From: an uncultured Bacteroidales bacterium
GTDB taxonomy: Bacteria; Bacteroidota; Bacteroidia; Bacteroidales; Bacteroidaceae
NCBI GenBank assembly: GCA_949297215.1
Contig: CASFRV010000006.1
Span: 20,149 to 84,148, forward strand
Direction: 5' to 3'
DNA: 64,000 nucleotides
Part shown: one piece after another, positions 28,388 to 34,609 of the stretch
Layout of the letters: each line of letters opens with the position of its first letter
Position numbering within the stretch: the first letter of the stretch is position 1
Program-made: the position numbers and the translations under genes
Notes under the pieces: model-generated
Seen by the model: only the letters and a program-made list of their open reading frames with translations
Databases searched by the model: none
What the model was told of the DNA's origin: nothing

Positions 28388-28434
28388 GTCGTAATTTGCT
28401 TTCAAATTAGTATCTTTGCTTCATTAGGAACAGC
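28388..28434 (+). CRISPR. Solitary, degenerate 47-nt type II-C CRISPR repeat (no spacer array)
   Basis: GTCGTAATTTGCTTTCAAATTAGTATCTTTGCTTCATTAGGAACAGC. Positions 2-23 pair with the tracrRNA anti-repeat at 34550-34570. It resembles the 47-nt Bacteroidota II-C repeat family as I recall it. No second copy was seen in the window. Confidence 0.75.
28411..28418 (+). promoter_or_regulatory. -7 promoter box TATCTTTG embedded in the CRISPR repeat
   Basis: Perfect TAnnTTTG inside the repeat, oriented toward cas2 (antisense to the cas operon). Confidence 0.45.
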
Positions 28435-28506
28435 GGATTTTAAGTAAATCGTTTTGTTTCAATGAGATGTAAGGATAAATAGAAAAGAAAAAAGTGAGTT
28501 CCTAAT

Positions 28507-28540
28507 AAAAATCCCGCTTTCGTCTGGGCGGGATTTTTTT
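28507..28540. terminator. Bidirectional intrinsic terminator at the cas2 3' end
   Basis: AAAAATCCCGC / GCGGGATTTTT form an 11-bp stem with a 10-nt loop. A T-run lies on the plus strand (T7) and TTTTTATT on the minus strand. It sits 2 nt from the cas2 stop. Confidence 0.75.
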
Positions 28541-28542
28541 GT

Positions 28543-28875
28543 TTAAAAGAGTTCCAATTGTTGGCCGGGGGCATTGACGCTTTGCGCTTTCTTTCCGTAG
28601 AACAATTCGATTTGGCCGAATTGCTTGTCGGTGATGCAAAGGATGCCCACTTTTCCGTAGTCGGGGAGGAAGGTTTTTACGCGTTTGATGTGGACGGCGG
28701 CATTTTCGCTGCTGGCACAGTGGCGCAGGTAGATGGAAAACTGGAACATGGTGAAGCCGTCGCGTTGCAGGTTCTTTCGAAAATCCAAGTAAGCTTTCTT
28801 GTCTTTCTTTGTTTCGGTCGGCAAATCGAAGAGTACCAGTATCCACATGATGCGGTATTCGCTGAAACGATCCAT
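28543..28875 (-). CDS. cas2: CRISPR-associated endoribonuclease Cas2
   Basis: 110 aa from [20 protein letters not shown] (ATG 28875). Shows the typical type II Cas2 ferredoxin-fold pattern. Confidence 0.9.
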
Positions 28876-28888
28876 ATTTTGTTTGTTT

Positions 28889-29821
28889 TTACAGCTCGGG
28901 ATAAGCGATGCGGCGCTGTTCGCCTGCAAAGCATTTATAGAGCGACGCCGTAGTCTGGCTGACGGCCACCATCAGCGGGCTGCGTTTTCCGCCGATGTTT
29001 ACTTCGATCGTGGGAATGGTGAGCAGCGTCGCTTTGATGTGCTTGTCCAAGGGAATGTCGGCTCCATGTTCTTGGCATATTTGAGAGACGAGTCTGTCTA
29101 CAAAGGGGCGGTAGGGCTCCATGATGTCGTCGGCCAGACAGTAGGCGTTGTAGCGGTTGTGGTGGTGGATGCCGAGGGTGGGGAGCAGACCGCTGCCCAC
29201 GAGTCCCCGGGCCACGACGGCCCGGAGAATGGCATAGCCGTAGTTGAGCAGATGGTTGGGCGGCATGCCTTCGCGGTCGCGCGTGAAGCCGGGGATGTCG
29301 GGGAAGAACGATTTCCAGTAGTAGGCGGCGGCCCGTGCTTCGAGGTTGTCGGGGTCGCCGCTGCGCACGTCGGAGGCCCATGCGCGCATACATTTCGTTT
29401 CGGCATCGGTGCAGGCGGAGAGGGCTGCGGCCTGATTGTTGATTTTAGCTTGGATGGTTTGTTGCCACAGTTGTTTGCGCAGTGGGAGCGAGGCGTCGAG
29501 CTGGCTGCGAAAGCGTTCGTTTTGCGTAGTGTTGCCGCAAAGGGGCAGGAGCAGGCCGACGGGCATGCGCCGCCGGTCGCAGGTGATGACGGCGCAGCCT
29601 TGTTCCAGCAGTGCCCCGACGGCCCCGGCCGTGATGGTGATTTGCGGATGGTCTAAGACGACCACGCCGATGTCTTCTATCGGTCGGGTTGTTTCGCCCG
29701 GAGGTTTCATTGCGTCATAGGCCATGTCCGTCTGTTCGCAGTTGGGCCGCTTGATGACCAGCTGGCCGTTCCTAAGCGACAGATAGGCGGGGTTACCGAA
29801 ATATAGTGTTTTCTTAATCAT
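28889..29821 (-). CDS. cas1: CRISPR-associated endonuclease Cas1
   Basis: 310 aa from [23 protein letters not shown] (ATG 29821). Conserved [39 protein letters not shown]. Confidence 0.9.
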
Positions 29822-34388: not shown

Positions 34389-34412
34389 GGTTCGGAATTT
34401 TAAAATTTTGTC

Positions 34413-34420
34413 CAAATCTA
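34413..34420 (-). promoter_or_regulatory. -7 promoter box TAGATTTG upstream of cas9
   Basis: TAnnTTTG on the minus strand, 25 nt before the cas9 ATG at 34388 and downstream of the tracrRNA terminator. Confidence 0.5.
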
Positions 34421-34479
34421 AGCATTTCTTTTGGAACGAAGGTGCGGCACAGCCCGTTTTAACCCGCCTGAGGGGAGAA

Positions 34480-34572
34480 AACAAAAATGGCCCGCCGATA
34501 TAGGACGACGGGCCGGAACCTGATAGTTTTCACAACGGAATAATCCTTATTGTGATTTGCTTCAAATTAGCT
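34480..34572 (-). ncRNA. tracrRNA
   Basis: The minus strand reads AGCTAATTTGAAGCAAATCACAATAAGGATTATTCCGTTGTGAAAACTATCAGGTTCCGGCCCGTCGTCCTATATCGGCGGGCCATTTTTGTT. It comprises an anti-repeat, a nexus-like AAGGATTATTCC hairpin, and a 9-bp terminator stem plus T-run. The ends are estimates. Confidence 0.8.
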
Positions 34573-34577
34573 GTGGG

Positions 34578-34609
34578 CAAAGCTACGCATTTTTTCGCTT
34601 GGCGGCAAA
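34578..34609 (-). promoter_or_regulatory. tracrRNA promoter (-33 TTTG, 20-nt spacer, -7 TAGCTTTG)
   Basis: Minus strand has TTTG at 34609-34606 and TAGCTTTG at 34585-34578. The box ends 7 nt before the anti-repeat. Confidence 0.6.

Follow-up and report, generated by a model that had tools for sequence, protein, structure and literature searches.

We analysed a stretch of 64,000 nt (the window) from the genome of an uncultured Bacteroidales bacterium. [quoted passage not shown] Very probably the array of this otherwise ordinary locus has been deleted down to its terminal repeat, which leaves a strain without spacers. The gap of 276 bp between cas2 and the neighbouring gene (28267-28542) contains one 47-nt repeat and zero spacers, arranged as follows (crRNA, CRISPR RNA):

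28388 to 28434, plus strand (crRNA sense): the sole CRISPR repeat, 47 nt, in the species' terminal ('extra') variant that starts with GTCGTAA
28435 to 28542, no strand assigned: A/T-rich leader of 108 bp, 0-1 nt different from the leader before the first repeat of array-bearing strains
28507 to 28538, both strands: predicted bidirectional terminator within the leader
28267 to 28387, plus strand: trailer, the last 30 nt of which (28358-28387) are the would-be 'guide' of an extraneous crRNA
27205 to 28266, plus strand: gene of 353 aa without a family match, convergent with the cas operon and forming the far boundary of the array site

The lone repeat passes the gathering score of the Rfam family CRISPR-DR49 (RF01362; 44.7 against 41 bits). 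A second copy is absent from the window: neither half of the repeat recurs with up to three mismatches (0 expected by chance), Tandem Repeats Finder reports no periodic array in the window, and a permissive Rfam search of 26-37 kb yields no further repeat. These scans bear out the initial annotation, which had counted exactly one 47-nt repeat in the gap and no second copy in the 64 kb. Its wording, a single degenerate repeat, holds for 'single', but 'degenerate' is overstated: 45 of the 47 positions are identical to the species consensus, the sole differences being two substitutions (T3>C and G6>A).

The origin of this repeat becomes apparent from a comparison with orthologous loci in related strains, as the initial annotation had proposed. 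Relatives were found by looking up the window's Cas9, Cas2, Cas1 and 353-aa neighbour proteins in public assemblies. They belong to the same species, with flanking genes that are 94-99% nucleotide-identical and in the same order, and at the same site they carry arrays of 10-64 repeats with the same flanks. The leader on the cas2 side is common to 11 conspecific metagenome contigs (0-1 nt differences) and the trailer to each of the eight contigs extending to the far end; trailer and 353-aa gene are 97-99% identical, and the gene is found beyond the array in contigs L012-L015, L017, L018 and L020. Between this common leader and trailer there are 10, 15, 15, 24, 24, 31 and 64 repeats, with spacers of 29-31 nt, and four more contigs stop inside arrays of at least 9, at least 10, at least 11 and at least 15 repeats. 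The internal repeats of the relatives read GTTGTGATTTGCTTTCAAATTAGTATCTTTGCTTCATTAGGAACAGC (start GTTGTGATTTG..., in short GTTGTGA...). The last repeat, however, starts with GTCGTAATTTG... in eight out of eight trailer-reaching contigs (L011, L012, L013, L014, L015, L017, L018 and L020) and equals the window's lone repeat base for base. Positions 3 and 6 are the only ones at which this terminal variant departs from the internal repeats, and GTCGTAA... is seen among the internal repeats of none of about 11 related arrays. Since the lone repeat is the terminal repeat of the relatives and is bordered by the same leader and trailer, the array site of the window consists of leader, terminal ('extra') repeat and trailer. 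Leader and trailer are collinear with those of the array-bearing relatives, and nothing besides the array is missing.

Two spacers recur in more than one strain. The first occupies the trailer-most position of both arrays (L014/L017), and the second is found close to the trailer end, which fits acquisition at the cas2 end and hence makes the variant repeat the oldest one. For the type II-C system of Riemerella the acquisition end of the array has been defined experimentally (PMC6008519), and the leader position found here matches it.

The same arrays speak to whether the locus might never have acquired spacers. A leader followed by one repeat is indeed what a naive locus is expected to look like, but the relatives have GTTGTGA... 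internally and the variant at the far end only. Spacer integration duplicates the leader-adjacent repeat, and an array grown from a variant carries this variant throughout, as shown in Legionella (PMC7056967). Because the internal repeats of the relatives are not GTCGTAA..., the single-repeat state appears derived rather than primordial. Cas1 and Cas2, which are identical to those of array-bearing strains, count against a primordial state as well, and we consider the probability of a locus that was empty from the start to be close to negligible.

The simplest way to delete an existing array would be a recombination event, or slippage during replication, that involves a leader-near consensus repeat and the mutated terminal repeat and removes every spacer-repeat unit. 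The crossover would fall 3' of repeat position 6, where the two repeats agree over 41 bases, and it is because of this position that the survivor would carry both terminal-repeat substitutions. To judge the age of the event we turn to the cas genes:

29814 to 34388, minus strand: cas9, 1524 aa, a large type II-C Cas9 of the Bacteroidota, CbCas9 type (TIGR01865, 2e-119)
28889 to 29821, minus strand: cas1, 310 aa, type II Cas1 model TIGR03639 (NMENI type, 1e-91)
28543 to 28875, minus strand: cas2, 110 aa (TIGR01573)

The operon, with the tracrRNA followed by cas9, cas1 and cas2 on the minus strand, is intact. The genes cas9 and cas1 overlap by 8 nt, whereas cas1 and cas2 are spaced by 13 nt. Adaptation is represented by cas1 and cas2 alone, without csn2 or cas4, and the interval between tracrRNA and leader holds no further gene. 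That all three genes are full length and that cas9 keeps its catalytic motifs had been noted initially and is confirmed: the five motifs were all located (ILGLDLGPGSIGWA at residues 4-17, IHVETAREM at 736-744, YQIEHVIPQ at 865-873, SNKV at 882-885 and HHAMDAIV at 1062-1069), the TIGR models match, and the protein aligns over its whole length with the solved CbCas9 (8iyq; 1198 bits). The D and H that are mutated in the dead CbCas9 of this structure align with an unaltered D8 and H869 in the window. Also, cas9 has the same length as in all nine relatives compared.

At the protein level, Cas1 is identical to that of four array-bearing contigs: L021 (15 repeats), L022 (at least 10), L023 (at least 15) and L024 (at least 11). 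An identical Cas2 is encoded on 20 contigs; among the matches listed, nine out of ten have multi-repeat arrays, and the tenth (L001) represents the window's own allele. Over 1279 nt of cas1-cas2 there is a difference of 1 nt with the array-bearing contigs L014 and L019. The codon changes in cas9 that are specific to the window (27 synonymous and 19 non-synonymous) have the same non-synonymous to synonymous ratio as those of the array-bearing strains (42 and 30 for the other strains pooled), by which relaxed selection on cas9 is rejected. Given identical Cas1 and Cas2 proteins, a single substitution in cas1-cas2 and a cas9 without relaxed constraint, the collapse looks recent.

In its present state the strain would produce Cas9, tracrRNA, Cas1 and Cas2 and no crRNA, and consequently would have no CRISPR immunity at present. 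The predicted promoter inside the repeat, which in a full array would drive the next crRNA, would here transcribe the leader only (approximately 110 nt, ending at the terminator at 28507-28538). A leader with one repeat would nonetheless form a minimal substrate for new spacer uptake, and in other systems it suffices for naive acquisition (cited in PMC8047081); an array regrown in this way would copy the mutated repeat. The absence of the variant from the internal repeats of about 11 related arrays leads us to hypothesize that regrowth from the collapsed state is rare or unsuccessful in this species.

As to the cause of collapse, self-targeting spacers have been proposed as a driver (PMC7056967). 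Among 327 distinct spacers of the relatives we observed a single self-matching one. It is the 30th spacer from the trailer in the array of 64 repeats on L012, reads ACAAGGGTAGCAAGCAGTCGCAAACGGCCG, and matches both the cas9 of its own strain and that of the window at 30 out of 30 positions. The target (4645-4674 on L012, equivalent to 34202-34231 in the window, cas9 codons 53-62 approximately) is flanked at its 3' side by AGCGCACC. This perfect match in one conspecific array tells that self-targeting spacers do arise in this population. We also considered selection for array loss by an element in the window that is targeted by spacers of the relatives, and rejected it: one out of the 327 spacers matches the window, and the match is cas9 itself.

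Several points weigh against a true collapse. The junction is documented in assemblies only, and one collapsed allele stands against about 11 array-bearing contigs and might represent a short-lived minority variant. How the deletion came about is deduced from its end product, the repeat search in this genome covers the 64-kb window, and the lack of crRNAs is read from the DNA sequence. In particular, an assembler might have taken a shortcut from the trailer through the shared repeat core into the leader of a normal array. Such a path is a valid de Bruijn walk for any array with these flanks, and the sequence by itself cannot separate the two situations. A contig from the Logan assembly of ERR10610579 is, however, 100% identical over 11,349 bp and runs unbroken through leader, repeat and trailer. 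This assembly presumably used k=31, which is shorter than the shared repeat core of 41 nt; a real array would in that case produce an equal-coverage branch, and the contig would stop there. The reads behind the Logan contig may be those of the window, in which case it is not a fully independent replicate. Within the same ENA project, arrays of 10-64 repeats were assembled from other samples, showing that the pipeline does not routinely collapse arrays. Taken together, we regard an assembly artefact as very unlikely.

A second alternative is that a working array with further copies of GTTGTGATTTGCTTTCAAATTAG lies elsewhere in the genome and is used in trans by Cas9 and tracrRNA, the lone repeat being a remnant. 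Orphan second arrays do occur in some Bacteroidota, such as CRISPR2 of Riemerella (PMC6008519). Yet the array directly follows cas2 in all conspecific contigs, the sister-lineage contigs likewise keep it at this locus on the cas2 side, and the 64 kb hold no further repeat. With every relative keeping its array here, nothing points to an array elsewhere, and we rate this explanation as very improbable. Scans of JGI metagenomes for the terminal-repeat variant and for the repeat-leader junction gave no match. A genome collection from which the window's own genome is absent was scanned for both repeat variants; the sole match was a metagenome-assembled genome of the sister lineage ('uncultured Alloprevotella sp.'), whose contig begins within its own array.

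The initial annotation had offered three interpretations, namely very recent loss of the array, an array elsewhere in the genome, or a fixed, non-canonical guide with a regulatory role. Recent loss is the one that stands, given conspecifics with 10-64 repeats between the same leader and trailer and a lone repeat equal to their terminal one. The fixed guide is not supported, for reasons that involve the tracrRNA and the promoters predicted around it:

34479 to 34571, minus strand: tracrRNA of about 93 nt with anti-repeat, scaffold and terminator stem followed by a T run, its ends being inferred
34571 to 34549, minus strand: anti-repeat of the tracrRNA, 23 nt, complementary to the CRISPR repeat
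34514 to 34489, minus strand: terminator of the tracrRNA, a 9-bp GC-rich stem and T run
34578 to 34585, minus strand: predicted tracrRNA promoter, Bacteroidetes -7 box TAGCTTTG (motif match, putative function)
34413 to 34420, minus strand: -7 box TAGATTTG located 25 nt upstream of the ATG, putative promoter of cas9
28411 to 28418, plus strand: predicted repeat-embedded -7 box TATCTTTG, a perfect TAnnTTTG at repeat positions 24-31 (putative activity)

At the level of sequence motifs (-7 box, GC stem and T run), the claim of a tracrRNA with its own promoter and terminator upstream of cas9 holds. Its -7 box TAGCTTTG shows no variation between strains and precedes the anti-repeat by 6 nt. The motif TAnnTTTG is frequent in the window, with 33 occurrences against 8.8 expected from shuffles. 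Promoters embedded in the repeat have been reported for type II-C systems, Flavobacterium included (PMC10309648, PMC12080349). Across all conspecific loci, and equally in a sister lineage with a 90%-identical Cas9, the tracrRNA itself is 100% conserved, whereas the adjoining sequence varies. A permissive Rfam search of 26-37 kb gave no match for it. Pairing of the anti-repeat with the consensus repeat is predicted to give a duplex of 23 bp that contains one bulge.

Five Logan contigs (L001, L003, L006, L007 and L008), which stem from different samples and strains, all begin at the base that matches window position 34555, which lies inside the anti-repeat, 167-170 nt upstream of the cas9 ATG. 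This common start may be explained by a tracrRNA scaffold that is common to other species in the metagenomes, causing the graph to branch at the anti-repeat.

If Cas9 were repurposed, the lone repeat and the fixed sequence upstream of it would provide a constant guide against an endogenous target, in the style of a small CRISPR-Cas-associated RNA (scaRNA), a long-form tracrRNA or an extraneous crRNA. The last of these has been described for type II-C arrays, in which the oldest repeat lacks a spacer and its transcription from a start outside the array would supply Cas9 with the upstream flank (PMC12080349). Some features of the locus are compatible with such a role: Cas9 is intact, as is the tracrRNA, and both are conserved; of the repeat:anti-repeat pairing, about 17 bp are predicted to be left; and no plus-strand terminator was found between the convergent 353-aa gene and the repeat. 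Without a terminator behind this gene, read-through transcripts with guide and repeat are possible. Repeat and upstream flank are nonetheless present in every array-bearing strain whose array reaches them, and are thus not special to this strain.

The remaining evidence argues against a constant guide. Four of the 30 positions of the would-be guide are polymorphic between strains, one of them in the PAM-proximal third (PAM, protospacer adjacent motif), whereas the adjoining repeat is invariant. A plus-strand TAnnTTTG box is absent from 28267-28387. Searching the window with up to three mismatches gave no second match for the 20-nt guide, and 12-nt seed matches occur at chance level. Furthermore, T3>C and G6>A weaken the predicted repeat:anti-repeat duplex from -28.5 to -19.0 kcal/mol and leave repeat nt 1-6 unpaired; the six spacer-proximal pairs that are lost belong to the part that Cas9 needs. 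In the strain comparison, the tracrRNA has no change that compensates for the substitutions in the repeat. Local RNA folds score no better than shuffles (z 0.06 and -0.88).

The same pattern has been described elsewhere. Extra-repeat mutations that fall within the initial 15 nt and weaken tracrRNA pairing occur in 60% of type II-C systems, which has been read as silencing of the extraneous crRNA; an upstream terminator and a hairpin in the guide are two other silencing mechanisms (PMC12080349). Neither of these is apparent here: a plus-strand Rho-independent terminator upstream of the repeat was not found, and a guide-sequestering hairpin was rejected, the small hairpins that are predicted having energies no better than those of shuffles. 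With competing crRNAs gone, Cas9-tracrRNA might be loaded by a read-through extraneous crRNA (28358-28411), or host transcripts might supply it with non-canonical crRNAs. That it acts as a fixed-guide regulator in this way is extremely unlikely in our view, as is any other regulatory use of the constant guide. If true, array collapse would be a step that turns an immune Cas9 into a regulatory Cas9.

Apart from the collapse, the loci differ in a number of other respects. Between conspecifics, the nucleotide identity of cas9 is 92.7-96.1%, against up to 99.9% for cas1-cas2 and 97-99% for the flanking genes (L012-L020), and the most divergent cas9 allele is that of the window. This lower conservation relative to cas1-cas2 and flanks suggests that cas9 is subject to allele exchange or diversifying pressure. 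One array-bearing conspecific (L019/L022, ERZ16268182 scaffold_8826) has a cas9 call of 1488 aa instead of 1524. Here the final 76 nt up to and including the cas9 ATG are deleted. This removes the -7 box predicted for cas9 together with the regular start codon, and Cas9 may be truncated or mis-expressed in this strain. Malformed units are seen in the arrays of L012, L019 and L011, where truncated repeats are fused to duplicated spacer fragments ('spacers' of 67-119 nt). These may be scars of recombination or local misassemblies.

In L002/L016 (19173-22208; Cas9 94% identical) the far end of the array adjoins a 5'-truncated repeat that keeps the promoter-bearing 3' part, and two tyrosine integrase genes are located where the others have the 353-aa gene. 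This arrangement suggests insertion of a mobile element, either at the end of the array or into it. The sister lineage (L004/L005/L009; Cas9 90% identical, 104 repeats) has approximately 657 bp extra between cas2 and leader (L004 15847-16570), containing an open reading frame of 206 aa and a 21-nt tandem repeat of 4.7 copies, and its array holds a block duplication of nine spacers. We considered the 206-aa frame as a PcrIIC1-like accessory gene and rejected it, as it has no family match and no sequence match in the PDB. Elsewhere in the window, an intergenic element made of tandem 7-mers is present in two copies that are 38 kb apart (47-189 and 38075-38226). It comprises runs of CAATTGA and, about 60 nt further on, runs of CAATTGT, which together form inverted arms. 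The 866-aa neighbour at 34669-37269 carries a sorting domain of the type IX secretion system (T9SS). Along with the frequent TAnnTTTG motif, this domain assigns the organism, which has 64% G+C, to the Bacteroidota; the label 'Alloprevotella' of the sister-lineage genome may be loose.

Summarizing, the window provides a natural snapshot of a state that is usually inferred: the array is reset to zero spacers with the machinery intact, and sister strains from the same study show the state before. This state is known but seldom directly observed, and our finding is an incremental point on array dynamics rather than a new kind of system. The type II-C setting adds a twist: what survives is the extra repeat. 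Changes that break tracrRNA pairing can gather freely in this repeat, which after collapse becomes the sole template for new repeats. If regrowth from a damaged repeat gives poor crRNAs, for type II-C systems a collapse would be a dead end, and mutations in the terminal repeat would have a hidden cost. The absence of the variant from the internal repeats of the related arrays is consistent with this idea.

Among known systems, Francisella scaRNA and the long-form tracrRNA of S. pyogenes reportedly represent regulation by Cas9 with a fixed guide. The likeness to our locus is one of components only (Cas9, tracrRNA and a repeat-like element outside a normal array). Unlike these systems, the window has no conserved guide, no endogenous target found within it and no promoter box of its own for the guide, and its tracrRNA pairing is weakened.

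Further related systems are found in the Bacteroidota. The type II-C system of Riemerella anatipestifer (PMC6008519) has an architecture identical to that of the locus in the window's species, and with their 47-bp repeats and 29-31-bp spacers the relatives of the window resemble the type II-C systems of Riemerella and Flavobacterium (PMC6008519, PMC10309648). Like CbCas9 (8iyq), with which it aligns along the whole length, the Cas9 of the window is large. The locus of the window differs from the Riemerella, Flavobacterium and CbCas9 loci in that the strain has no spacers and the locus no PcrIIC1-like accessory gene. The extra repeat of type II-C systems (Feussner et al. 2025, PMC12080349) shares with our lone repeat its position as the oldest unit at the transcription-start end, the lack of an own spacer, and mutations in the first 15 nt that weaken the predicted pairing. 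There, however, it is one repeat out of many, whereas in the window it is the sole one and would consequently also have to template any new spacer uptake.

The collapse itself has its counterpart in Legionella pneumophila, where recombination between the first and the last repeat, leaving the last repeat only, has been described and engineered for a type I-F system (Deecker & Ensminger 2020, PMC7056967); catastrophic array collapse is discussed also by Garrett 2021 (PMC8047081). In both organisms one repeat remains between an intact leader and trailer, its sequence equals that of the last repeat, a polymorphic one, in the arrays of the relatives, and the cas genes are intact. Differences concern the type of system (I-F against II-C) and the surviving repeat, which in the window is altered in the region that pairs with tracrRNA. 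A second system for cross-priming, as in Legionella, was not seen in the window, and the 'scar' of regrowth (all repeats with the sequence of the last one) is present in none of the related arrays. Finally, the collapsed state in Legionella was engineered and its natural regrowth inferred, whereas here the collapsed state itself is seen in a natural population.

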